This document shows, piece after piece, positions 1 to 12,500 of a stretch of DNA of 12,500 nt. The notes under the pieces were generated by a model, which did no database searches, was not told the origin of the DNA, and saw only the letters and a list, made by a program, of their open reading frames with translations. Source of the stretch: Pseudobdellovibrionaceae bacterium (GTDB taxonomy: Bacteria; Bdellovibrionota; Bdellovibrionia; Bdellovibrionales; Bdellovibrionaceae). The stretch is from contig JBIKLL010000078.1 of NCBI GenBank assembly GCA_044359815.1, positions 1 through 12,500 of the forward strand, written 5' to 3'. A program made the position numbers and the translations under genes. Each line of letters begins with the position of its first letter. The first letter of the stretch is position 1.

Positions 1-100
<100 letters not shown>

Positions 101-269
101 TCCTCAAATCCCCTACCCACACAACCACCTAGACTCGATTTCGATCTGAACCAATAGTCATATTAATCAGAGTAATCAAACATTCCATATCAACCTTGGT
201 CTAGTTCAGACATTTTGATTGCTCCACCTAAGAGCACTGCTAAAATATTTTGATTAGCAGGAGGCTATA

Positions 270-953
270 ATGAAACACCTTATCATGATTTCTTTGGTTC
301 TGATTTTTTCAAACGGCGCATTTGCAAAAGGCGGAGGTGACATGGGATTATCATTCGGAATTGCCCTTGCGACTCCTTCTCAAAGCGATCTGGAAGCACA
401 TATTTCAACTGTTAATACCGCTAGTTCCTCAAGCATCAGTAAATTTGGTGCGGGAACTGAAATCTTTGCTGATTTTAGTTTTAACTTGGGCGGTTCGATG
501 TTTAACATTCTGTTCAGACCCAGTTATTTTATGCAGTCCACTTCTTCAGGTACAAATAAATACTCGCTGTCAGGATTGACGTTTTTTCCGATGATGCGAT
601 TTGTGCCACTGGAAAACAATATTATTAAATTTTTCCTGCAAGGCGGAGTCGGATACGGCAGACTTTCTGGTTCAGTGGAAAACGCCAGTGGTAAAGTTGA
701 TTTTGCTGGTGGAACATTTGGGATGATGGGGGGCTTGGGAGCTTTGTTTTGCTTCACTCCTGCTCACTGCATGGGCGTTGAAGGCAATTTGCGTTATTTG
801 CCCATTGCCAGAAACACTGTTTCAAATGTGACCGGAGCTCACCCTCAGTTTTCACAAGCTATAGCTGACCGCGAGCTGGAATTTGACGATTCTGACGTTG
901 CGACTTCGATGTCAGGCATTGTTGGTGCCGTTTACTACACACTCATGTTCTAA
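270..953 (+). CDS. Outer-membrane beta-barrel protein (OmpA/Ail/OmpW-like small barrel)
   Basis: AGGAGG RBS at 259-264; signal peptide ending AFA-K; alternating strands such as FFLQGGVGYG and MGVEGNLRY; C-terminal beta-signal-like YYTLMF. Confidence 0.8.
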   Translation: MKHLIMISLVLIFSNGAFAKGGGDMGLSFGIALATPSQSDLEAHISTVNTASSSSISKFGAGTEIFADFSFNLGGSMFNILFRPSYFMQSTSSGTNKYSLSGLTFFPMMRFVPLENNIIKFFLQGGVGYGRLSGSVENASGKVDFAGGTFGMMGGLGALFCFTPAHCMGVEGNLRYLPIARNTVSNVTGAHPQFSQAIADRELEFDDSDVATSMSGIVGAVYYTLMF

Positions 954-961
954 TTTAGAAC

Positions 962-2110
962 ATGAGATTTATAGTATTTGGAATCTTTTTTGGCCTTTTT
1001 GGCCTAATACAACTTTTTTCCCACCATCCCACATATAAAGTTTGGGGAACAGGCACCGATCATATTTCACATTCAATGACGGTGTTTTTGTTTTTAGAAC
1101 ACCAATTTGAAATTTACCGCGAACCTGTCACAAACCTTTGCCCGATCAAAGACTCAGAAAAAATCACTCAGTTCAAAGAAAAATATAAAATCCCCGAAAA
1201 AGATCTGCGCAACGTCTGTCAGATTTCACCAGACTCACGGGTTTTGTTTTTTAGTTGGCCCGAGGTTGTCAGAAGCTATCCCCCAGGCGAGCTTTTGGTC
1301 GGAGTTCCCGGTGCCATATTTTATGCGATCTCGGATGATTTTGATATGACAGCCATCTTTTTAGCTGTGATTTATTTTTTAACCGCAGCTGGGTGTGCGT
1401 TGTTGATTTTGTATGCCCTACGTGATTTAAAAACCGAAGTCGGTGATATTACCCTAGCATTGATTTGCGGATTCTTTTTACCCATGGGACTGGATGGATA
1501 TTATGACAGCATCCCGGCGCTGTTTATTGTTTTGAGTATTTTGTACGCGCTGAAAGAAAACAATCCTGTAAAATCATTTTTATTTTTTGCGCTGGCTGGA
1601 TTTTTTCATTTCAGATACTTTATGTATTTTCCATTGGCTATTTGGCTTTTTTATCGAAACCGAAAGGCCATGAACACTCCAGTTTTTTGGGTGGCTTGCT
1701 ATTTGATTTTATTCACTGTCTTTACGTTGTGGTTATCAATACCTGGGATCAAAAGAATCCCTGCTCAAAATCCATTTTTAACCAACCCTCAGGCTGCTTG
1801 GTATCAAATCACATTTATTTTGGCAGCCGTTTTTAGTATTTTGATTATTACAAAACGCTATTTATTAGCTTCGGTTTTATTTACCCTAATCATTGGTATC
1901 GCTCAGTCGCCAGTGGCTCAACCCTGGCATATGATGGCATTACTGCCTTTGCTGCTGTTTCCAACCTTGGACAAAAAACCAAAATTGCTTTCAACCTATG
2001 TGATACTGGTGGTGTTTTTACTGGCCTTGGATCAAATGCTTTTTCATTCCTTTTTGGCCTTTGGCAGTTTTTTACCATCTTATTTGCTGGAAACAATTAA
2101 CAGATTTTGA
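962..2110 (+). CDS. Polytopic inner-membrane protein, putative GT-C-fold glycosyltransferase
   Basis: N-terminal TM, then a periplasmic loop with an acidic residue (TDH) and a YPPG motif, then many hydrophobic segments with GYYD and QPWH loop motifs; lies 8 nt after the OMP gene and is coupled to a DUF2723 gene. Family is inferred from architecture only. Confidence 0.55.
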   Translation: MRFIVFGIFFGLFGLIQLFSHHPTYKVWGTGTDHISHSMTVFLFLEHQFEIYREPVTNLCPIKDSEKITQFKEKYKIPEKDLRNVCQISPDSRVLFFSWPEVVRSYPPGELLVGVPGAIFYAISDDFDMTAIFLAVIYFLTAAGCALLILYALRDLKTEVGDITLALICGFFLPMGLDGYYDSIPALFIVLSILYALKENNPVKSFLFFALAGFFHFRYFMYFPLAIWLFYRNRKAMNTPVFWVACYLILFTVFTLWLSIPGIKRIPAQNPFLTNPQAAWYQITFILAAVFSILIITKRYLLASVLFTLIIGIAQSPVAQPWHMMALLPLLLFPTLDKKPKLLSTYVILVVFLLALDQMLFHSFLAFGSFLPSYLLETINRF

Positions 2111-3960
2111 TGTATTTAATTTTGGCTTTTCTAATTCCGTTTGCATTGTTTTTCCTGGGCCTGGCCCCATCGTTTACATTTGAGGATTCTGGCGAACTGA
2201 TCACTGCAGCCTATCACCTGGCAGTTCCTCATCCGCCGGGATATCCACTGTGGGTGTTGCTGGCCCATCCCTTTACAGTTATGTTTTCAAATCCTGCTTT
2301 TGGTGCGAATTTCTTTTCGGCATTTACCAGCGCCTTGGCCGGTCCTTTTATGTTCTTGTTTTGGAGAAACATTTTCAAACAATTTAACACTCCACAATTT
2401 TTGGCTCTGTTTGCAGCCTTATTAGGGATTTTAGTACCGCACACATTCAGACAATCGGTAATTACCGAAGTCTACGGTCTGCATAATTTAATTTTTGCCA
2501 TAGGATTATTGTTGATCGAAAGAATCATTTCATCAGAAAAACCTAAATATTTACCTTTTATCCTGGCATTAGTTCTGGGACTGGGACTTAGCAATCATTC
2601 AATGACTCTGGTTCTGGGATTAATTTATTTGTGCGCACTGCTGATTGCAAAAATTGATATCTTAAAACAGCTGCGGTTTTGGTTGGGTTCATTTTTGGGT
2701 TTGGTCATTGGCCTATTGCCAAATTTTTATTTGCTCATCCGCGGCAGATCACAGTGGATTCTTAACTGGGGTGAAATCACAAATATAACAGATCTGTGGC
2801 GACACATGTCCCGGTTTCAGTATCAGCCCAGTCTGTCACGGGATTGGATTGTCGCCATGGAACAGTTTCGACAGCAGATAATATATATTTTTGATCAGTA
2901 TTCAGTATTGGTGCTGTTTGGAGTTTTTGCGATTTTGATACTACTGAAGTTTCAAAAAAAATGGGGTCAGATTTTATTAGTTTCACTGTTGGCAACAGGT
3001 CCTTTGGTGGCTTTTTTAACCAATTTTAGATTTGTAAGTCTACATGAACTATTGTTTAAGGATCTTACTGCTATCGCAAGCGTGTTTTATTTGCCCTATT
3101 ATCTGATTTTTGGTGGCCTGATTGCCTTTGGGATTTATCAAACTATGAATCTTAGATTTTCAAAGCCTGTTTTTTCTTTGCTTCCACTGATTTTATCGAC
3201 TTCCGTGATGGCGGGAATCAGTTTTTATACCGAAAGAAAAGACAACTATATCGCTGCAGAGAAGTTTTTTGAAAATGTTCAAACTGTGATTGGCGATAAG
3301 CCCACTGTGATTTTAACCAACTGGGATCCGTTTTCCTTTCCGATTTTTTATCTGCAACAGGTAAAGGCGCAAATGAAAAACGTGGTTATGGTGGATCTGG
3401 AAATGCTCAAGGCACCTTGGTTTTTAAATCAACTCAGTCACTGGTATCCAGAATTTTACAAATCACTGGGGGATCTGCCTGAGTATTTAAAGCAAGAAAC
3501 CAAAGTTTGGATGGACACTGAAAAGGATAATTCAGAAGCTATTGGTGTTATGTATTACAGTTTGGTCAGAAGAATCATTGAAAAGGGTAAGGCCTGCTGT
3601 CAGGTTTATGTGTTGATGTCTCGTGATTTTGGCAGGCTTCCGGCGGGCTCAGAAATTGGCTCGATTATTGAGCCTTATTTTGTTGGTGCCTTGGTGAGTA
3701 ATCAAAAAACCACACAGTACGATCCCGAAATTTTAGAAAAATTAGATCTAACTGGATTTGAAAACTCAGAATTGAAATACGACAGATTGATGTTGATGCT
3801 ATCAAAATACTACACCGATATTTTTATGGATATGTATAAGGCACAAGAAAACAAACCAGAACATCAAGCTTTGCGAAGCAAACTATTAGAGAAAGCTTTG
3901 ATCACTAGCCAATTGATTCCTGAACTGCACGAAAAAATTAAAAAGGAGCTCCGCCCTTAA
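2110..3960 (+). CDS. DUF2723 / TMEM260-like protein O-mannosyltransferase-family GT-C glycosyltransferase
   Basis: Signature EDSGELITAAYHLAVPHPPGYPLW, plus TEVY, LGLSNH and NWG motifs; many TMs then a soluble C-terminal domain. ATG at 2110 overlaps the upstream TGA (TGATG), so it is preferred to TTG at 2107. Confidence 0.88.
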   Translation: MYLILAFLIPFALFFLGLAPSFTFEDSGELITAAYHLAVPHPPGYPLWVLLAHPFTVMFSNPAFGANFFSAFTSALAGPFMFLFWRNIFKQFNTPQFLALFAALLGILVPHTFRQSVITEVYGLHNLIFAIGLLLIERIISSEKPKYLPFILALVLGLGLSNHSMTLVLGLIYLCALLIAKIDILKQLRFWLGSFLGLVIGLLPNFYLLIRGRSQWILNWGEITNITDLWRHMSRFQYQPSLSRDWIVAMEQFRQQIIYIFDQYSVLVLFGVFAILILLKFQKKWGQILLVSLLATGPLVAFLTNFRFVSLHELLFKDLTAIASVFYLPYYLIFGGLIAFGIYQTMNLRFSKPVFSLLPLILSTSVMAGISFYTERKDNYIAAEKFFENVQTVIGDKPTVILTNWDPFSFPIFYLQQVKAQMKNVVMVDLEMLKAPWFLNQLSHWYPEFYKSLGDLPEYLKQETKVWMDTEKDNSEAIGVMYYSLVRRIIEKGKACCQVYVLMSRDFGRLPAGSEIGSIIEPYFVGALVSNQKTTQYDPEILEKLDLTGFENSELKYDRLMLMLSKYYTDIFMDMYKAQENKPEHQALRSKLLEKALITSQLIPELHEKIKKELRP

Positions 3961-4744
3961 ACTGTGGGCTTTGCAAATAGGCATCTGCTGCAGAGGTAGC
4001 ATCGACTTCAACCTGGCAAGACGCCGAAAGTGCTTCCGCATTCGGACCAGGGCAGCAAAAAACCCCATAAGTGTTGTATAGGGCACCTTCACCACAATTG
4101 TTGAATGTAGCACCACCACCAGTTGGTGATGTATTACACCTGTTGGATGAATTTGATGTAGCTATACCAACGAAGTTAGAAGTGTTCGAACTCCATGTCG
4201 AGCCTGAGCTGTAGGAAATTCCCCAAGATCCAGAATTTCCTGAGGTATCAAGGCCTGTTCCAGACAATTCAACCCAAGCTGAGCCCGACCAATTAGAATA
4301 CCCGTAAGGGCTGGTGCCCGGATAGTTAGCCTGGAACTGAGACATGGAACAAACAGTGTAACCGTTCACACAACTGCTACTTCGATTCGAATAGTATGCG
4401 TAGTCACAAACAACCATGCCGTTACCTAAGTTTGTATAATAGGACGTGTAGCTGGCGCAGTGTTTCCCTGTCACGTGATTGGTTTGAGCTTTCGGACCTA
4501 AAAATAAATTACTCTTAGCAAAAGTCTGCGTCCCAGATTCATTGTAACATTTTAAATTATAATTAACTGTCGAAGTTCCACCATTCATTAATTTAATTCC
4601 CGCATCTGATGAACCTGTTGATGTATTGACCGGAATAGTTACCTTGCGGGGGGCGATTGCAAAAACAAACAATCCAACTGTTAACATAACGGAAATGATT
4701 CCCAAACGGGCCATTGATCTTTTGAATTCAGAATTTTTAGACAT
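3938..4744 (-). CDS. Membrane-anchored or secreted Cys- and Ser/Gly/Thr/Asn-rich surface protein, possible C-type-lectin-like domain
   Basis: AAGGGA RBS; basic N-terminus plus a hydrophobic helix; 10 Cys; pattern CVNGYTVCS...AWV...GVFCC. Confidence 0.7.
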   Translation of the reverse strand: MSKNSEFKRSMARLGIISVMLTVGLFVFAIAPRKVTIPVNTSTGSSDAGIKLMNGGTSTVNYNLKCYNESGTQTFAKSNLFLGPKAQTNHVTGKHCASYTSYYTNLGNGMVVCDYAYYSNRSSSCVNGYTVCSMSQFQANYPGTSPYGYSNWSGSAWVELSGTGLDTSGNSGSWGISYSSGSTWSSNTSNFVGIATSNSSNRCNTSPTGGGATFNNCGEGALYNTYGVFCCPGPNAEALSASCQVEVDATSAADAYLQSPQFKGGAPF

Positions 4745-4776
4745 TTATAATTCCCTTTTTTAAATAACTAGTAATT

Positions 4777-5808
4777 TTAATAATACGAAACCTGAGTCAC
4801 AGAAGGCAACACTGTGATTCCAACTGGTACTAAATCGCTGGCGGTGACCTCATAAATGGTACCCCCATGATCTAAGGCATACAATTTGTTTCCTCGACCT
4901 GGACTAATGGATTGCACCCAAACAGGTACCGAACATGTGGCAAATGGACAGGTGTAGGATGAGCTGACGGTTCCACCTGGTAAAACCTGATAAATCAAAC
5001 CTGATTCATCCATAGCGTAGATCTCGTCTTCGTCAGGCTTGCGACTGAACGATTTTAAATAACGTTGAGCTTCCACATCACTGAAAGTAATTAGGGAAGA
5101 ATTTGTCACACCCGAAACATCAGATGCCGTTAAGGATCCAACGACCAATTCAAAAAACCATTCCCAAAAAGGTTTCGCAAAAGCCAACGCTACATCTGGA
5201 TTGGAAACGATATCCACCAGACTTCCATCTGATCCCATCGTTGCATGCAAAATGGCTGGAGGTGGAGTCGACAAACAGGCATTGTTTCCACTGAGTGTTC
5301 CCACAGAATTGTCGATTCCAGGGTAGTTCAAAGAAATACTAATTGATTCATCATCATTGACCAGATTTACTTGGCCACTGGTTCCAGACAAAATAACTTT
5401 GTCATAGTTTTTCTGATTGGCTTCAAAAGCAGAATCCCAAGAAGGACATGTACTGCCCAGTTCAGTAAGGTACACATACAATTCGAATATTCTGCCTGAG
5501 CCTTTATTGATCGACATAGTGATCGATTCACCTTCAGCCACAAAACCTGCGGTCTGAGAAAAATTTCCGTGGCAGCTCGTCGCTGGCAATGCAACGGGAA
5601 TATCAGATCCTGAAACATGAATGCCATAGCAAACACGTTTATCCGAGGGCAGAGTCACATTTTGCGAAATCAACGACTGAGCTAGTTCATTTCTGGAAGG
5701 CATTTTTATTGAAATGCTGGACTGATCTTTTGCGGAACCTCCACCAGAATCTCTTGAACAGGCAGCTGCCACACAAACGATGCCCAGATAAATAACCTTT
5801 TTAATCAT
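4777..5808 (-). CDS. Hypothetical lipoprotein with C-terminal beta-propeller-like blades
   Basis: MIKK plus hydrophobic stretch plus lipobox AAA-C; duplicated motif IYAMDESGLIYQV / LYALDHGGTIYEV. Confidence 0.75.
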   Translation of the reverse strand: MIKKVIYLGIVCVAAACSRDSGGGSAKDQSSISIKMPSRNELAQSLISQNVTLPSDKRVCYGIHVSGSDIPVALPATSCHGNFSQTAGFVAEGESITMSINKGSGRIFELYVYLTELGSTCPSWDSAFEANQKNYDKVILSGTSGQVNLVNDDESISISLNYPGIDNSVGTLSGNNACLSTPPPAILHATMGSDGSLVDIVSNPDVALAFAKPFWEWFFELVVGSLTASDVSGVTNSSLITFSDVEAQRYLKSFSRKPDEDEIYAMDESGLIYQVLPGGTVSSSYTCPFATCSVPVWVQSISPGRGNKLYALDHGGTIYEVTASDLVPVGITVLPSVTQVSYY

Positions 5809-5815
5809 AGATGAC

Positions 5816-5869
5816 TGATCGGCATCTGGTCTGATGAAATTGAAAATTATTACTGTCTTATTTTGAGAC
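5816..5869 (-). promoter_or_regulatory. Putative sigma28-like promoter with an upstream palindromic operator
   Basis: Minus strand TCAA-N16-GCCGATCA (FliA consensus TAAA-N15-GCCGATAA); imperfect palindrome GTCTTA-TTT-TGAGAC at 5855-5869. Confidence 0.4.
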
Positions 5870-5870
5870 C

Positions 5871-6608
5871 CTAGAGCTCAACCCAGGAGCCGCCTATTTC
5901 GTCTATATAAAAAGCCTTGATATCATTAAACCAACTTCCCAAATTGATACCTCTGACCTGACGACCAGTGGGTTTTGTGTAGGTGTAGTCGTCACGAACA
6001 TGTATGTGCCCTGATACCAAAAAATCAAAATCATTTTGGTCAGATTGTTGCTTTACATAGGTTCTGAACTTTTCGCGCAGATAGTCCTCTAAATCTATGC
6101 GTTGCCTTTGGCTGTTTGCCCTGCTTTTACCCGAGGCATACTGACCTAACTCATACCAAAAAACACTGGGCAGATTCAGCGCCAAAAAACGCATCCATCC
6201 AGATCTCATAATCTGAAGCCACTTCAGATAAGTCGTGTCTTGGGGATTTATATAATCCCCATGGGTCAGTCTGAGTTTCCAAGAATTCACATTGAAACTG
6301 TGAATCCCTACAAAAACAGGTATATCAAATCGTTTCCAAAATTTCTCAACATAGACATCGTGATTGCCCTCAAAATAAATAACCTCAACACCACGTTGTT
6401 TAAGTTTTCGGATTTCTTCTACGATTAAAATAAATTTTTGTTCAAAGGCTTTTCCGTGACCTACCCAAACATCAAAAATATCACCCAGCAAATACAAATG
6501 TGTGGCTTTGCGACTAACACCAAGGCTGTGCAAAAAACTTAAAAAGGTCACCGCTCGTTGATCGGTGACCTCTTTGATGTGAATATCTGAAACAAACCAA
6601 GCATGCAT
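5871..6608 (-). CDS. lpxH: UDP-2,3-diacylglucosamine diphosphatase, LpxH/LpxH2-like metallophosphoesterase
   Basis: All five calcineurin-like motifs: SDIH, LGDIFD, EGNHD, THGD, GHIH; C-terminal NLGSW; 245 aa. Confidence 0.8.
   Translation of the reverse strand: MHAWFVSDIHIKEVTDQRAVTFLSFLHSLGVSRKATHLYLLGDIFDVWVGHGKAFEQKFILIVEEIRKLKQRGVEVIYFEGNHDVYVEKFWKRFDIPVFVGIHSFNVNSWKLRLTHGDYINPQDTTYLKWLQIMRSGWMRFLALNLPSVFWYELGQYASGKSRANSQRQRIDLEDYLREKFRTYVKQQSDQNDFDFLVSGHIHVRDDYTYTKPTGRQVRGINLGSWFNDIKAFYIDEIGGSWVEL
6532..6571 (-). terminator. Intrinsic-terminator-like hairpin just downstream of ftsZ, inside the lpxH 5' coding region
   Basis: Minus strand GGTCACCG-atcaacgag-CGGTGACC (8 bp GC-rich stem, 6546-6570) followed by TTTTTaagTTTTTT. 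Confidence 0.45.
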
Positions 6609-6617
6609 GCTTAGCTA

Positions 6618-8225
6618 TTATTTGTCTTGCAGATCAAAATTCTGTCGTTTGCGAATAAAAGCAGGAACTTCAAAATTCTGATTTGAAAACGGAGAGCTCA
6701 AAACTTCGCGCGCCATTCTGCGAGCCTCTTCCAGAGTCTGAGTATCTTGATTTTCAACGTTCAATGAAAGCTGCTCGGGATGAGAATGCTTTTGTTTGAT
6801 TTCTTGGCTTTCCTTAAATGCTTTGGCTTTGGCAACCAACATATCACGAGCATCCTGTGAAGACTGTTGCTGTTGTTGTTCGTTGCTAACCTGAAATGAC
6901 ACCTGTGGTTTATAAGTCGATTGCTGCATGGGCATCGGCTGTTGTTGCTGCATCTGTTGTTGTTGCATCTGTTGTTGTTGCATATGCTGCTGCTGCATTT
7001 GTTGCAATGGCTGAGCAGGCATCATTTGCTGTGGCATCTGAACGTTCTGATATGAAGGCATTGCTGGTTGCGCATACTCTGGTTGAATAAAATCATTAGG
7101 ATTAAATGGTTGCTCCAATGGAAACTCAACTGCAGGAGCCTGGGCCTCAATCGGCATTGGCTTAACAGGCTCTTGAGTTAGAAAATCCTGCATCTTATTC
7201 AAGTTTTCATACTGCATTTGTCGGTTCAGAACTTGAGTTTGAGTGTGTCCATGCAAATGATTGTTGTTTGGATCTTGAAAGCCCGTCGCAATCACAGTAA
7301 CACGAACTTCATCTTTGATTTCGTCGTCGATGACCGCACCGAAAATAATTTCTGCATCTTCGTGAGCCGCTTCTGTGATCAGAGTCGAAGCTTCGTTGAC
7401 TTCGTACAGACTTAAATCATGGCCACCAGTTACGTTGATAATGATACCTGTTGCTCCGTCAATTTTAACATTTTCCAACAGAGGAGATGAAATCGCAGCT
7501 GTCGCCGCTTGGATAGCGCGGTTTTCTCCGCGAGCAGATCCGGTTCCCATTAATGCCAATCCCTGTTTTGCCATCACTGTTCTGATGTCCGCAAAATCCA
7601 GATTGATCAAACCTCTGATATTGATCAGATCAGAAATACCTTTCACTGCTTGCAATAAAACTTCATCAGCTTTTTTAAAAGTTTCCAACAAAGGAGTTTT
7701 ATCACCACTGACTGACAGTAATTTTTGATTTGGAATCACGATCAAAGTGTCTACGTTTTCTTTTAGCTCTTGCAATCCAGCATCTGCATGTTTGGATCTG
7801 CGTTTGCCTTCAAAAACAAAAGGTCTTGTCACCACACCAATTGTCAGTGATCCCAGTTCTCTGGCGATTTTGGCAACGATGGGTGCGCCGCCTGTACCGG
7901 TTCCGCCACCCATTCCGGCTGTGACAAAAACCATGTCAGCGCCTTCAAGAGCTTCAACGATTTCGTTGTAAGACTCAATGGCTGCTCGTCTGCCGACATC
8001 AGGGTTTGCTCCCGCGCCTAAGCCTTTTGTTAAGTCTTTTCCTAGCTGTATTTTGCCAGGGGCTTTATTGGCATTCAATGCCTGGATATCAGTGTTTGCA
8101 ACAATAAATTCAACACCGCTCATTCGACCTTCGATCATGGTTGCAACTGCGTTGCTGCCTCCGCCGCCGACGCCGACAACCTTGATGTTGGCTCCTATGT
8201 GTATGTTTTCTTCAAGTTCAAACAT
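6618..8225 (-). CDS. ftsZ: Cell division protein FtsZ with a long Q/M/P-rich linker
   Basis: [18 protein letters not shown] tubulin signature, INLDFAD T7 loop, VTVIATG, C-terminal peptide [18 protein letters not shown]. Confidence 0.99.
6936..6998 (-). repeat. 15-nt coding tandem repeat (MQQQ[Q/H]) x about 4 in the ftsZ linker
   Basis: Plus strand CATCTGTTGTTGTTG twice exactly (6951-6980) with degenerate flanking units. Confidence 0.9.
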
Positions 8226-8277
8226 GTTACCCTCCTGAGTCTTAAGCTAGACGTTTCCGCCAGCAGAAATTAATTTC

Positions 8278-9531
8278 TTAAAACAAGTTTTCAAAAAATC
8301 CTCTGATTTTTGTCCCCACAGAATTTATTGATTCAGCTAAACTTTCCTCTGATAATTTTGTGGCTCTGGTAAATCTTTTTTGAGCCAGCCCGTATTGCAG
8401 CAACCCAACTGATGTGCTGAATGAAGCTGATTTCACAACTTCGCTTAAACCTAAAACGTGAATCGGAGCTCCCCTTCTGACGGGAATGTCCAAAATAAAT
8501 TCGCCCATTTCAATAAATCCAGAAAGCTGCGAAGCCCCTCCAGTCAGAATCACTCCTGATCCTAACAATGGCATCAATCCGCTCATTTTTATATCATGTG
8601 CAATCAACTGCAGAGTTTCTTCGGCTCTAGGTTCAATGACTTCAGCCAAATCTTTTCTGAGCACGGTTCTGGATTTGCGTCCACCAACGCCTTCGACCTC
8701 GATCATTTCATCAGTAGAAATCAAACTGGCCATGGCACAACCAAATTGCTTTTTCAATTCTTCGGCGGCAATTTGCGGAGTCCTCAGACCAATCGCAATG
8801 TCGTGAGTGAAATGCTGTCCACCGATTGGCAGTATCGATGTGTGCGCTACACTGCCGTTTATAAAATACACTAAATTACAAGCTCCCGCTCCAATGTCAG
8901 CGACACAAACACCCAAAGATTTTTCGTCCTCACTCAGAACAGACATGGCGGATGCCAATGGGTCCAGCACCATACCAACTGATCTGATACCAGCTTTATC
9001 CAAACATTTTAAATTATTTGAAATCGCCGTTTGGCTGCCAGTCACTATGTGAACATTGGCTTCCAATCTAATGCCAGACATTCCAACGGGATCTAAAATT
9101 CCGTCTTGTCCATCGACTTTAAATTCTCGAGGAATCACGTGCAAAACTTTACGATCAACAGGGACTGCAACAGCTTTTGCGGCGTCTATCACGCGCTCTA
9201 CATCGTGGGGATTGATTTCGCGTTTATCGCGAACAGCTACCATGCCTTTTGAATCAAAGGATTTAATGTGTGAGCCAGAAACACTCATCCAGACTTCGTC
9301 GATGCGAAATCCAGACATCAGCTCGGCTTCTTCTCGAGCTTTTCGAATGGCTTCCGCCGTTGCTTCAATGTTAACAACGACACCCTGTCTGATTCCGTAA
9401 TTTGGCGACTGACCAACTCCAACGATTTCGATTTTTGATTCGGCGTTGAGAGTCCCGATAGTGACCGCCACTTTTGACGATCCTATGTCCAGTCCAGCTA
9501 AAGTCGGAGTGCTGCTTTTCTTGATGTTCAT
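8278..9531 (-). CDS. ftsA: Cell division protein FtsA
   Basis: GLDIGSSKV, GIRQGVVVNIE, ADIGAG, AEELKKQFG, VILTGGASQL; amphipathic C-terminus KIRGFFENLF; directly upstream of ftsZ. Confidence 0.99.
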   Translation of the reverse strand: MNIKKSSTPTLAGLDIGSSKVAVTIGTLNAESKIEIVGVGQSPNYGIRQGVVVNIEATAEAIRKAREEAELMSGFRIDEVWMSVSGSHIKSFDSKGMVAVRDKREINPHDVERVIDAAKAVAVPVDRKVLHVIPREFKVDGQDGILDPVGMSGIRLEANVHIVTGSQTAISNNLKCLDKAGIRSVGMVLDPLASAMSVLSEDEKSLGVCVADIGAGACNLVYFINGSVAHTSILPIGGQHFTHDIAIGLRTPQIAAEELKKQFGCAMASLISTDEMIEVEGVGGRKSRTVLRKDLAEVIEPRAEETLQLIAHDIKMSGLMPLLGSGVILTGGASQLSGFIEMGEFILDIPVRRGAPIHVLGLSEVVKSASFSTSVGLLQYGLAQKRFTRATKLSEESLAESINSVGTKIRGFFENLF

Positions 9532-9578
9532 GCCAAACCCCTGTCCTTGGTCTTTGGGATAAAAGTCCTTACAATAGG

Positions 9579-10334
9579 TTACGGAGCCTTACGCAGCCTG
9601 ACAAGGACTTTCTTAGATAAGTTTGCATCAATGACGCGCGCTTGCAGTTTCTTGCTATCAAGATACTCGAGCACTTGTGATGCTCTAGAAATTTTTTGTT
9701 CAAACATTTCTTCACCCAATCTGACGACAGCAGAATTTCCAATCAGCACTAATTGAAAACCTTTTTGATTGTCATAGCGAATTTCAGAAACTTTTGCTGA
9801 ACTGATGTTACCAGATTCAGGTAATGATTTATAAAGTTCGATCGCTTTTTTTCTGATGTCTTTGTTTTTTTCAAGCACTTCACCGATCAATAAAATTTTG
9901 TCTGGCAATTTTAAATTTGTTGTTACGGCCAACAAATCTCCATCCGCAGTCACTGGTCGATAACCACCGCCGCGTTTGACATAAATCAACGCAATTTTTT
10001 TGGGTTTGATTTCTATCAAAACCCTTGCTGGCCAGGTTTTCCGGACTTGATGATCAGCGATCCAATCTTGGGTTTTAATGATTGAAGAAAAAGATTCCAG
10101 ATTGATTTCCCACAACGATTGCCCCACAAACTGTTGCAGCAGAAATTGAAGCTCATTTATTTTTGGCGAAAAAAAGGAATCCCCGATATCAGCTTTTTCA
10201 AGCTGCCAATTGATTTCGACAATTCTAAAAAAACCTTTTTGATTTAAAAAATAAAGTCCGCCCAAAAAAACTGCTGGAAACAAACCAAGCACCAACAAAA
10301 TAACTGCAATTCTTTTGATCCAATTTTTTTTCAT
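9579..10334 (-). CDS. ftsQ: Cell division protein FtsQ/DivIB
   Basis: Short basic N-tail, single TM, POTRA-like WIADHQVRKTWPARVLIEI, C-terminal VIDANLSKKVLVR; upstream of ftsA; AAGGGG RBS. Confidence 0.9.
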   Translation of the reverse strand: MKKNWIKRIAVILLVLGLFPAVFLGGLYFLNQKGFFRIVEINWQLEKADIGDSFFSPKINELQFLLQQFVGQSLWEINLESFSSIIKTQDWIADHQVRKTWPARVLIEIKPKKIALIYVKRGGGYRPVTADGDLLAVTTNLKLPDKILLIGEVLEKNKDIRKKAIELYKSLPESGNISSAKVSEIRYDNQKGFQLVLIGNSAVVRLGEEMFEQKISRASQVLEYLDSKKLQARVIDANLSKKVLVRLRKAP

Positions 10335-10574
10335 AAAGGTTCCCCTTATAGTTTTGATTTTAAAAAGGGCATCAATCCAGATTTTTATGTTTCGAATCTA
10401 AGTTTCTGGATTTTTGTCTGGTGAGCACAGCGTTGTGCTTATTGGCCCGATAAGATCTTATGTTAAGCACAGTTAATTTTTGCAAAAATCCCTGAATCTT
10501 AATCAGAGAATCAGTTTTTATTTCCATTTCCATTGGGAGGGTTTAGATTTTTGTCTTTCAAAAGAGGGGACCTA

Positions 10575-10979
10575 ATGAGAAATAATTTTTTGCAGTTTAA
10601 TGTTTTGGCTCGTGCTTTGGCTTGTGCAGTGTTTTTCGCAGCATCGATGGGCTTTATCAGCAATGCCACGGCCGCTGATTTAAAAAGGGTCGGCCGCGAA
10701 TTAGCGATTTATTTTGAATTCAAAAATGTTTTAGCGGAAATTACTGACACAGATTCTGACGAACTGGATGAAGACACTTCTTTGCAGCTGTCAGGAAGCC
10801 CTCAGCAAGTAGCAATGCTTTTAGTCACTCGCCTGGGTACCAAAGAAGATTCAAAAATTTCGATGATAGATTTTGACGTGCAAGAATTTGGCAATTCCAT
10901 TGCAAAAAACTGCGCCGACACCAGCCGCGTCGTCTACACACCCATGTGCCTTTTTGATTCCCTAAAGGAATCTCTTTAA
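10575..10979 (+). CDS. Small acidic secreted hypothetical protein (134 aa)
   Basis: GAGGGG RBS just before ATG 10575, preferred to TTG 10533; signal peptide ending ATA-A; a pair of Cys near the C-terminus. Confidence 0.75.
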   Translation: MRNNFLQFNVLARALACAVFFAASMGFISNATAADLKRVGRELAIYFEFKNVLAEITDTDSDELDEDTSLQLSGSPQQVAMLLVTRLGTKEDSKISMIDFDVQEFGNSIAKNCADTSRVVYTPMCLFDSLKESL

Positions 10980-11001
10980 AACAAAAAAGAATTTTTAAAA
11001 G

Positions 11002-11495
11002 CCGAATCATAGATACAAAAATTTTAAAAATATTAGATGGCCCACTTGGCTGCAGTAAATTTAAATTTTAAAAAATATTTCTATATTTTCATACCTTGTG
11101 AATACATTTGCGAGCGCGCATGGCATATCTGGTGATGCGTAAATGCAAAGGTAATTTTTTTCACTATTTTTAGACACTCGCTAACGGCCGCGGGCTCATC
11201 TCTCGTATTGAGTCATTTAGATTAATCAGTTTTACGATAATTTATTAATCGTAAAACTGATTAATCTAAATGACTCAACACCAGATATGCCCCGCACGCT
11301 CGCTGCATGTGTCTAAAAACAGTAAAAACAAATTACTTTTGCATTTATGCAATACGAGAGATGAGCTTGCGGCCGTTAGCAAGTATTCTCAAGGTATGAA
11401 AATATAGAAATATTTTTTAAAATTTAAATTTACTGCAGCCAAGTGGGTAATCTGTATAAAAACGTATAACTTAAATTTTTGTATCTAAGATTCGG
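11002..11495. repeat. Modular ~495 bp inverted-repeat element with permuted inner modules (structured ncRNA, ssDNA or MITE-like; class unknown)
   Basis: Manual reverse-complement alignment: A0 11002-11024/11473-11495 (22/23); A 11041-11105/11383-11447 (64/65); B 11110-11134/11279-11303 (22/25); C 11136-11177/11309-11351 (about 37/43, one indel); D 11180-11210/11350-11380 (29/31); E 11208-11238/11248-11278 (31/31), 9-nt loop. Confidence 0.95.
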
Positions 11496-11504
11496 TTTCT
11501 GCGA

Positions 11505-12500
11505 TTACCAAGTCGTGGGAATAAATCCAGGAGGCAAAAAGAACACGCCGGTCTGATACATGATGTTTATCGTCCTTCCGGTTGTGCTGCGCAGATCGCG
11601 CCCCTTTGGCGAACCATTGTCGACGATAAATCTTCCGCTGTCACCTGCAGCTATGTATGTATGCCCCGGTGAATTTCCTGTACCATTCATTAGAAAAGCT
11701 CCGATTGGTGGTCGGTACTGAGTTGAATCCCATGGGATAAAACCTGCACGGCTCAGATACATTGAAAAATTCACGACGGCAGCTGCTCCATTTGAATACG
11801 TCAGTTTGTTATTTTTTGCAGAATTAAAATCATCTGTGTGCTTAAACCCAGCTCTTTTATATGCCTGCCTTAAAAGCTCAGACATAAATTCTGCGCAAGG
11901 TACATTGGCAAAACCATGCCTGGTCGCTGTTCCCAAAACAGCCACCGACCAAGCACCCCACAAGGGCACTGTGCCTTTTTGTTCGAACTGCAAAGACAAT
12001 TTTTGAGCTTCCTTTTTATCAATCGCTAAATATTTTTTCATGGATGCCTGAGTTCTGTTTGAAACAGCAACAAGCTCTTTCATAATTTTATTCCATTTAC
12101 TTTGTTGTTGAGTCGGCAACTGACTCATTGGAATGGCTTTATTGACCAATCCGGGGAATCGTTTTCGAATGCTGCTTGAATAGCTGAATTTTGGCTTTCC
12201 TGTGATTTGATAATACTGCAAAAAGCCTTCTCCAGGTTGAGCCGCACTGAGTGGTGTAAAAAAGCTTCCAGGTCCCAACAGCTCCGAAGCTATTGTCGCC
12301 GTGATAAATAATCCGCCGGGTGTTTGCTGAATTTCTGCAATTTTTCCGGCTGACAGCTTTGCAGGATCACCACTTTTTATGATCACTACATTTCCAAAAA
12401 AACCTGTTGATGAAAACGCAACCTGACCATTGTCTTTTCTGTAATTATAATTAACTGGCGAGGAATTTGAGGGAACTTCAATTTCAGTTCCAGCAGGAGC
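11505..12500 (-). CDS. Putative papain-fold Cys-His peptidoglycan amidase/peptidase (NlpC/P60, CHAP or Tae-like), 5' end outside the window
   Basis: The frame stays open from 12386 to the window end (APAGTEIEVPSN...); C-terminal domain with CAEFMSELLRQAYKRAG and PGHTYIAAG...IVDNG, the usual catalytic Cys/His arrangement. Confidence 0.65.
   Translation of the reverse strand, partial: APAGTEIEVPSNSSPVNYNYRKDNGQVAFSSTGFFGNVVIIKSGDPAKLSAGKIAEIQQTPGGLFITATIASELLGPGSFFTPLSAAQPGEGFLQYYQITGKPKFSYSSSIRKRFPGLVNKAIPMSQLPTQQQSKWNKIMKELVAVSNRTQASMKKYLAIDKKEAQKLSLQFEQKGTVPLWGAWSVAVLGTATRHGFANVPCAEFMSELLRQAYKRAGFKHTDDFNSAKNNKLTYSNGAAAVVNFSMYLSRAGFIPWDSTQYRPPIGAFLMNGTGNSPGHTYIAAGDSGRFIVDNGSPKGRDLRSTTGRTINIMYQTGVFFLPPGFIPTTW

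Follow-up and report, generated by a model that had tools for sequence, protein, structure and literature searches.

What is a non-coding palindrome of about half a kilobase doing between two convergent genes, and how does it persist there? The question is raised by a 12,500-nt stretch of a Pseudobdellovibrionaceae genome (assembly GCA_044359815.1, contig JBIKLL010000078.1, positions 1 to 12,500; hereafter the window, its genome being denoted G000). An earlier note, made from the letters alone, had described a self-complementary element that fills a convergent intergenic gap, has no ORF, shows no target-site duplication and has no transposase or recombinase gene beside it. All of these observations held. 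The plus-strand ORF stops at 10979 and the minus-strand ORF at 11505-11507, and the palindrome arms span 10999-11498 (Table 1). The two B arms are 96% complementary, and at the centre 11197-11238 pairs with 11248-11289. The DNA minimum free energy of the element is -171.2 kcal/mol, against a mean of -50 for shuffled sequences (z -27), and the RNA fold reaches a z of about -30 on either strand. The longest stop-free stretch within the element is 45 codons, no transposase or recombinase adjoins it, and no target-site duplication was seen, the outer ends being ragged between copies.

Table 1. Features of the palindromic element and its flanking ORFs, in window coordinates.
Feature	Position	Strand	Remarks
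Left flanking ORF	10575..10979	+	134 aa from ATG; no Pfam family; context, outside the element
Outermost arm A, left	10999..11024		private to the locus; elsewhere in the genome one weak look-alike, 5 mismatches
Outer arm B, left	11035..11105		derived from the family; the right arm mirrors the changes specific to this locus
Outer unit core half M1 (GCGAGCGCGC..CATATC)	11110..11137	+	partner 11350-11380; plus strand favoured (G.A, G.T, A.G oppositions)
Spacer C, left	11138..11179		outer-unit stem remnant and inner-unit arm; spacer classes of 43/47 nt and 104-111 nt
Inner unit core half M2, reverse copy	11180..11210	-	partner 11276-11303; minus strand favoured
Central stem D	11211..11275		perfect, 28 bp, 9-nt loop; differs among copies, mirrored inside each
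Inner unit core half M1	11276..11303	-	motif match
Spacer C', right	11304..11349		inverted-repeat pairing, spacer classes
Outer unit core half M2 (CAATACGAGAGATG..GCGGCCGTTAGC)	11350..11380	+	129 genome copies at <=3 mismatches
Outer arm B', right	11383..11453		inverted-repeat pairing
Outermost arm A', right	11473..11498		inverted-repeat pairing
Right flanking ORF	11505..12500	-	>=331 aa, 5' end open; no Pfam family; context, outside the element

The same note had argued against a fold-back sequencing chimera, and further evidence agrees with it. Both window flanks were found in all four public sequencing runs at depths of 4-9, and pieces of the interior at up to about 100 times the flank depth. 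In G000, 32 complete four-motif copies lie away from contig ends, and an independent assembly has the complete four-motif element together with its two flanks (L038). No piece in the four runs covers the whole window copy, so the pairing of exactly these flanks with this interior is unproven.

The element belongs to a repeat family. Two motifs of about 30 nt, M1 and M2, give 266 matches in 99 clusters in G000; a few single weak matches among these are chance, and the copies number about 95. The repeats explain the fragmentation of the assembly, which is 91% complete and broken at these sequences, with 37 of the 99 clusters at contig ends. Away from contig ends, 13 copies have one M1 and one M2 and the 32 others repeat the four-motif order of the window. 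The repeat unit reads arm-M1-stem-M2-arm, and the window form is one unit placed upside-down in the tip of a second. This nesting gives the modules the permuted look that had been noticed at first; the design is not unique, and consists of two oppositely oriented nested units. Arms measure 33-142 nt and have ragged ends, facing core halves lie 9-110 nt apart, and a diverged subfamily retains the outer core halves. The copies are scattered in both orientations and do not form arrays. Of the 60 copies with two called neighbours, 36 lie in convergent gaps; among large gaps the convergent ones number 76 of 329 (p=4e-12, on crude ORF calls); doubles are not more convergent than singles (20/32 versus 10/13). 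Left arm B starts with a ragged outer-end consensus that is common to a second group of G000 hairpins, type II. A cluster of 61 hairpins consists mostly of these type II sequences, which are long and have a different, GC-rich tip; some of them have their outer ends in common with M1/M2 copies (4 of 35 hits).

The two core halves face each other across the stem with defined mismatches, and these give each unit a polarity. Read on the plus strand, the outer core of the window has G.A, G.T, A.G and G.G oppositions, whereas the inner core has T.C, A.C and C.C, so that there the minus strand is favoured; the double form therefore has one favoured core on each strand. The absence of strand preference reported at the outset is thus true of the sum only, since each unit is polarised, in opposite directions. 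The motif strand was the more stable one in 59 of 59 cores with DNA parameters and in 51 of 59 with RNA parameters, and the consensus core folds with -10.4 kcal/mol versus -4.7 for the opposite strand. Across 60 distinct cores, 91.8% of cells were paired, compared with 77.3% after shuffling and 29-55% after sliding, and two-sided changes occurred at 11 of 18 pairs, in an alignment that was fitted to the model and is made of related sequences. Among the 43 cores whose tips could be called (17 of 60 were uncalled), 14 end in GNA triloops and 3 in GNRA tetraloops; the accessible part of one study describes GNA mini-hairpins as far more stable in DNA than in RNA (PMC13037366). At the 42 co-directional sites out of 127, the folded strand was the antisense one 28 times and the sense one 14 times (p=0.04, with crude ORF calls and kin that are not independent). 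Strand stability, GNA tips and the antisense excess are hints, not proof, that the core acts as single-stranded DNA. No Rfam family matched, the search returning only sub-threshold miRNA-type hairpins.

How widely is the core distributed? A species-specific element was suggested by a whole-element BLAST against 40 relatives, by an M2 pattern in 181 family genomes and by a first search model, R1 (18 cores from G000, G342 and G344), in 150 other genomes of its own family, all of which gave no real match. This reading was overturned by a shorter motif, a 13-mer of the outer halves, and by carriers found with a second model, R2, built from 66 hits. None of the 383 other genomes of the order has more than four matches to the 13-mer, and in G342 and G344 these proved to be the same core, set on long and perfect arms. 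In f6, a sister family within Bdellovibrionales, R1 detected the core in 12 of 109 genomes and R2 in 17 of 109, together with 2 of 149 other own-family genomes; genomes used for training match these models by construction. The hits in the 12 genomes of R1, in G009 and in G023 were inspected visually, and the carriers G285, G288, G307, G316 and G341 are model calls. In a phylum sample R2 gave 4 of 151, all within the two families. In a pattern scan, every armed match among the at least 115 listed was titled Bdellovibrionales or Bdellovibrionaceae, those listed from outside Bdellovibrionales were armless and of low score, and viral contigs had none.

The core thus occurs in about 20 genomes of predatory Bdellovibrionales. 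In relatives it stands on near-perfect arms of 45-80 bp, and in G009, from another genus of the same family, three of four loci have the same antiparallel double and the fourth is partial. The core is conserved across genera and the arms are not, which supports the earlier proposal of a non-coding element that is constrained to some degree and works at the DNA level. Neighbouring genes that recur across genera (rpoN-, NifU- and oppC-like) were about as frequent as expected by chance on a rough estimate. Searches of the open literature found no account of the core motif; its order-wide recurrence and its link to RAYT ends, described below, are new.

Arms and core also behave differently within a genome. 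Over the inner 45 nt of the outer arm, the two arms of a locus are 95.6% alike, versus 76.5% between loci (45 G000 loci), and in 41 of the 45 the best match of an arm is its own partner. In G279, G272 and G342 the values are 89-95% within loci and about 50% between them. Facing core halves are M1 opposite M2 in 95 of 97 cases in G000; they are corrected almost never. Template switching corrects inverted repeats, according to the accessible portion of PMC5941160, and a template-switch route can invert a spacer, according to that of PMC8604942. As described in the former, this correction accounts for the mirrored arm substitutions, being a process and not a family, and it leaves the retention of core mismatches unexplained. 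Because the correction of arms almost never erases the mismatches of the core, we infer that these are kept by selection, not by neglect.

The sites are old and their interior is dynamic. Eight contigs of a sister population, from one other metagenome and with flanks 87-96% identical, match eight sites that are all occupied in G000, the sites having been chosen by presence of the motif in the sister population. The suggestion of a recent insertion is not supported here. No empty-site allele was seen at the eight orthologous sites, and no empty allele or joint that skips the element occurred in the contigs of eight runs, which cannot prove absence. Three of the eight sites were flipped, and these flips, between two short-read assemblies, could be mis-joins. 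The other five showed interior swaps or deletions of modules with their locus-specific outer sequence retained. At one contig end (L403, G304:C4:544200-554054) a perfect fold-back of about 5 kb doubles one core and is probably an assembly artefact.

Long palindromes are expected to be cleaved by SbcCD, and mismatches and permutation had been proposed as the features that let this one survive. We found no SbcD in G000, and in G000 the only SbcC match was below the cut-off, on a 1201-aa ORF. SbcD above the cut-off was absent from 18 genomes of the family and present in 1 of 109 f6 genomes, a non-carrier of the core. Palindrome instability through SbcCD is therefore probably not applicable here, and the near-perfect arms of the relatives likewise speak against a protective role of imperfection. 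Since most genomes that lack SbcD also lack the core, the absence of SbcD is a permissive condition only.

A candidate for the mover came from the relatives. The closed genome G279 contains about 48 cores; seven of these are capped at both ends by the inverted repeats that flank the RAYT-like gene L196, and six by those of L204, another such gene. Cap type and arm subtype go together (7:0 and 0:6, p=0.0006), the copies of one of the REPs flank a core in 12 of 28 cases, and half of a core, decayed, was recognized by eye about 250 nt behind L196. In G342 the repeat of RAYT L105 caps three of eight cores. Caps are lacking on the remaining 35 of the 48 cores of G279; G304, G305, G310 and G344 yielded no REP cap, and G272, with at least 27 cores, has no match to PF01797 (Y1). 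G000 has a RAYT-like gene (L046, C8:9504-10136) with its own repeat of about 48 copies, whose product reaches 72.5 bits against NF047646 (cut-off 80). The REP of this gene lies within 300 nt of none of the 99 family clusters, and none of the nine Y1 genes of G000 is flanked by the family; with RT absent from the genome, copies flanking HUH or RT genes, as had been envisaged, did not turn up. This RAYT does cap 13 of 25 hairpins that carry a third structured core, whose basal module is in common with units of G009 and G023 that bear an M1/M2-type core there. The core was found by model search within 1.5 kb of none of 40, 31 and 30 Y1/RAYT loci (plus two recombinase loci), sets that overlap. HUH elements that move through the lagging strand are often biased to one replication strand; no such bias was seen (7:6 and 18:15), nor in G279, where strands were judged by eye. 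Of 384 genomes of the order, 209 have close RAYT homologues; inspection of 30 such loci found distinct inverted repeats on their flanks at 24.

Other candidates were rejected. The outer end resembles 3 of 32 RAYT-repeat rows, two of them from the same G344 gene, and its reading as a decayed REP (p~0.01 uncorrected) was not significant after correction for multiple tests. A 203-aa HUH family does not co-occur with the core (8 of 17 carriers versus 37 of 92 non-carriers). This Y1-like, apparently mobile family has eight copies in G000 (L002-L008 and L051; 85-93% identical, without flanking hairpins) and relatives in 45 of 109 f6 genomes, with up to 27 copies. An IS91-like transposase exists as two partial remnants, recognized by sequence (G000:C120:22032 and C30:2-649); RT and IS110 are missing from G000, and its integrases amount to two tyrosine recombinases of XerC/D size. 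No multi-copy DDE transposase appeared among the paralog groups, whose first members were read by eye, and no mobile gene recurs among 181 flanking proteins. Multi-copy proteins with a C-terminal HNH motif, which we take to be DUF222-like, occur at 12 places in G000 (C19, C8, C48 and others). One of these genes lies 110 nt upstream of a decayed unit, and as a mover the family fails, with 1 of 12 within 200 nt of a repeat.

The family was then set against known systems. REPINs, in the accessible text of PMC3116915, are long extragenic hairpins with variable spacer arms that change on both sides in a compensatory way, and they persist vertically while their RAYT may be lost, as stated in the available part of bioRxiv 10.1101/2021.07.10.451892. 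The present element is likewise a multi-copy extragenic hairpin with complementary variable arms, and for 13/48 cores of G279 and 3/8 of G342 its ends are RAYT-flanking repeats, which were not seen in G304, G305, G310 or G344. Unlike REPINs, which by those descriptions conserve the REP ends and vary the spacer, it conserves an inner asymmetric core across genera and REP families; most of its copies have ragged or lost ends, and in G000, where no cognate REP ends or RAYT were found, it shows no REPIN membership. The resemblance to E. coli REPs and BIMEs lies in a mismatched hairpin bulge as strand-specific recognition feature (REP versus iREP; PMC3479197) and in two inversely oriented units with mosaic higher-order forms (PMC3479197, PMC3686654), as far as the accessible portions of these papers go; IHF, gyrase and Pol I are reported there as binders. 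The differences are that no GTAG was seen at the foot of the core, that the units are nested and not tandem as in a BIME, and that the core consists of two distant halves on a long stem instead of a local hairpin of 35-40 nt.

The CGTC and GTAG REP superfamilies, in the part of PMC3733652 that is available, share a preference for heterodimers over homodimers and some structured conserved spacers, and CGTC repeats without flanking transposase are described there. Their stems of 8-9 bp, loops of 4-5 nt and terminal tag contrast with a core of about 90 nt with internal loops on arms of 45-100 bp, and the M1/M2 core is no canonical member of either, its halves pairing across 9-110 nt with no tag at the foot (by eye). 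PMC3733652 has no mention of Bdellovibrio, and neither has the accessible text of a survey of stem-loop families (PMC2267715); the core is not described in that text or in those of the TnpA-Y1 subclass paper (PMC6006769) and PMC3686654. By analogy, then, the element would work like a REPIN or BIME with a conserved inside and variable ends, the reverse of the usual. A match to a described family had been named as what would refute the first interpretation: Rfam gave none, yet the likeness to REPINs and BIMEs stands.

The explanation that we favour, and to which we give roughly an even chance, is that the window holds a double, inverted-nested non-coding hairpin whose core is likely carried in REPINs by a RAYT acting in trans, and kept as a strand-specific, folded ssDNA signal for a putative protein. 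A RAYT, an HUH tyrosine transposase, would copy REP-arm-core-arm-REP units to new intergenic sites, the REP caps would decay after insertion, and in G000 the cognate RAYT may have been lost or left unassembled. Between the inverted arms, recombination or template switching would mirror mutations, flip the interior and delete tips; hairpins of 0.2-0.5 kb would persist since SbcCD is missing; and selection would retain the core mismatches, because these would otherwise vanish under the correction that makes the arms perfect. The nested inverted double could offer one active core whichever strand is single-stranded. More tentatively, and with rather less conviction, one may see in the core a strand-polarised ssDNA signal, spread through the order, which hitchhikes on the REPINs of unrelated RAYTs and outlives them. 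It would be a conserved cargo or hyperparasite with a putative reader enzyme of host or mobile origin, twice built as an antiparallel double so that it is presented by either strand. Should the core itself instead be the mobile unit, put into existing hairpins (REPINs of any RAYT, other palindromes or its own stem) by a putative enzyme that targets their tips, with the arms mirrored locally, one could understand why one genome has the same core in REPINs that belong to two different RAYTs, why two genera have it nested in its own tip, why most cores are uncapped on arms unrelated between loci, why type II and M1/M2 cores of G000 have outer ends in common and why G272 manages without a Y1 match. 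We consider this unlikely: cap and arm subtype travel as a pair in G279, the 181 flanking proteins include no recurrent mobile gene, G000 has neither RT nor IS110 and only two tyrosine recombinases, and the 203-aa HUH family does not co-occur with the core (8/17 versus 37/92).

A structured RNA signal at transcript 3' ends, such as a stabiliser or a nuclease or protein site, with the double serving both convergent mRNAs, would agree with the strong 3'-end and convergent bias, with the covarying helix and with the motif strand being favoured under RNA parameters as well (51/59). We judge it likewise unlikely, as the folded strand is more often antisense than sense at co-directional sites (28 to 14, p=0.04), doubles are no more convergent than singles (20/32 versus 10/13), orthologous sites are flipped, GNA triloops occur at the tips and no Rfam family matched. 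The core might also be an old neutral repeat subject to ectopic gene conversion in the absence of SbcCD, its conservation due to descent and conversion only. Interiors that differ at all eight orthologous sites while positions persist, the patchy spread (17/109 and 2/149) and the failure to find SbcD would suit such a repeat, and still we allow it a small chance, for the arms of different loci have diverged to about 50%, whereas the core of these hairpins holds invariant mismatches and two-sided changes across genera, and correction perfects arms and almost never the core. In attC arrays, cassettes stand in the same orientation, with RYYYAAC...GTTRRRY boxes and an IntI. The resemblance to such sites lies in the imperfect hairpin, its fixed extrahelical bases and its strand polarity, and yet G000 has no integron integrase candidate, its copies are scattered in both orientations without cassette arrays, and end boxes exist on one side only; the M1/M2 family corresponds to neither integron attC sites nor CALINs. 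Nor do its ragged ends, without sharp terminal repeats, target duplication or a matching IS, resemble those of a classical MITE, and we find either assignment scarcely credible.

The role of REPINs for their hosts is an open question, and their spacers have been treated as filler that is free to vary. A structured spacer motif gives a handle on it: a defined 90-nt ssDNA substrate, the inactive strand as control, and closed genomes that bear RAYTs. These genomes also show hairpin repeats where SbcCD was not found, with long mirrored arms, flips and nesting. If the core is neutral, it is an ordinary lineage-specific repeat.

Two further observations concern the rest of the window. About 25 tandem CAAT units occupy positions 1-100, at the contig start, and similar microsatellite-like runs also lie upstream of several of the eight near-identical 203-aa HUH genes. 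On the minus strand, 5871-10334 contains ftsQ (by Pfam), ftsA and ftsZ (by sequence), followed by a metallophosphoesterase gene; the FtsZ encoded here has a long, Gln-rich C-terminal linker.
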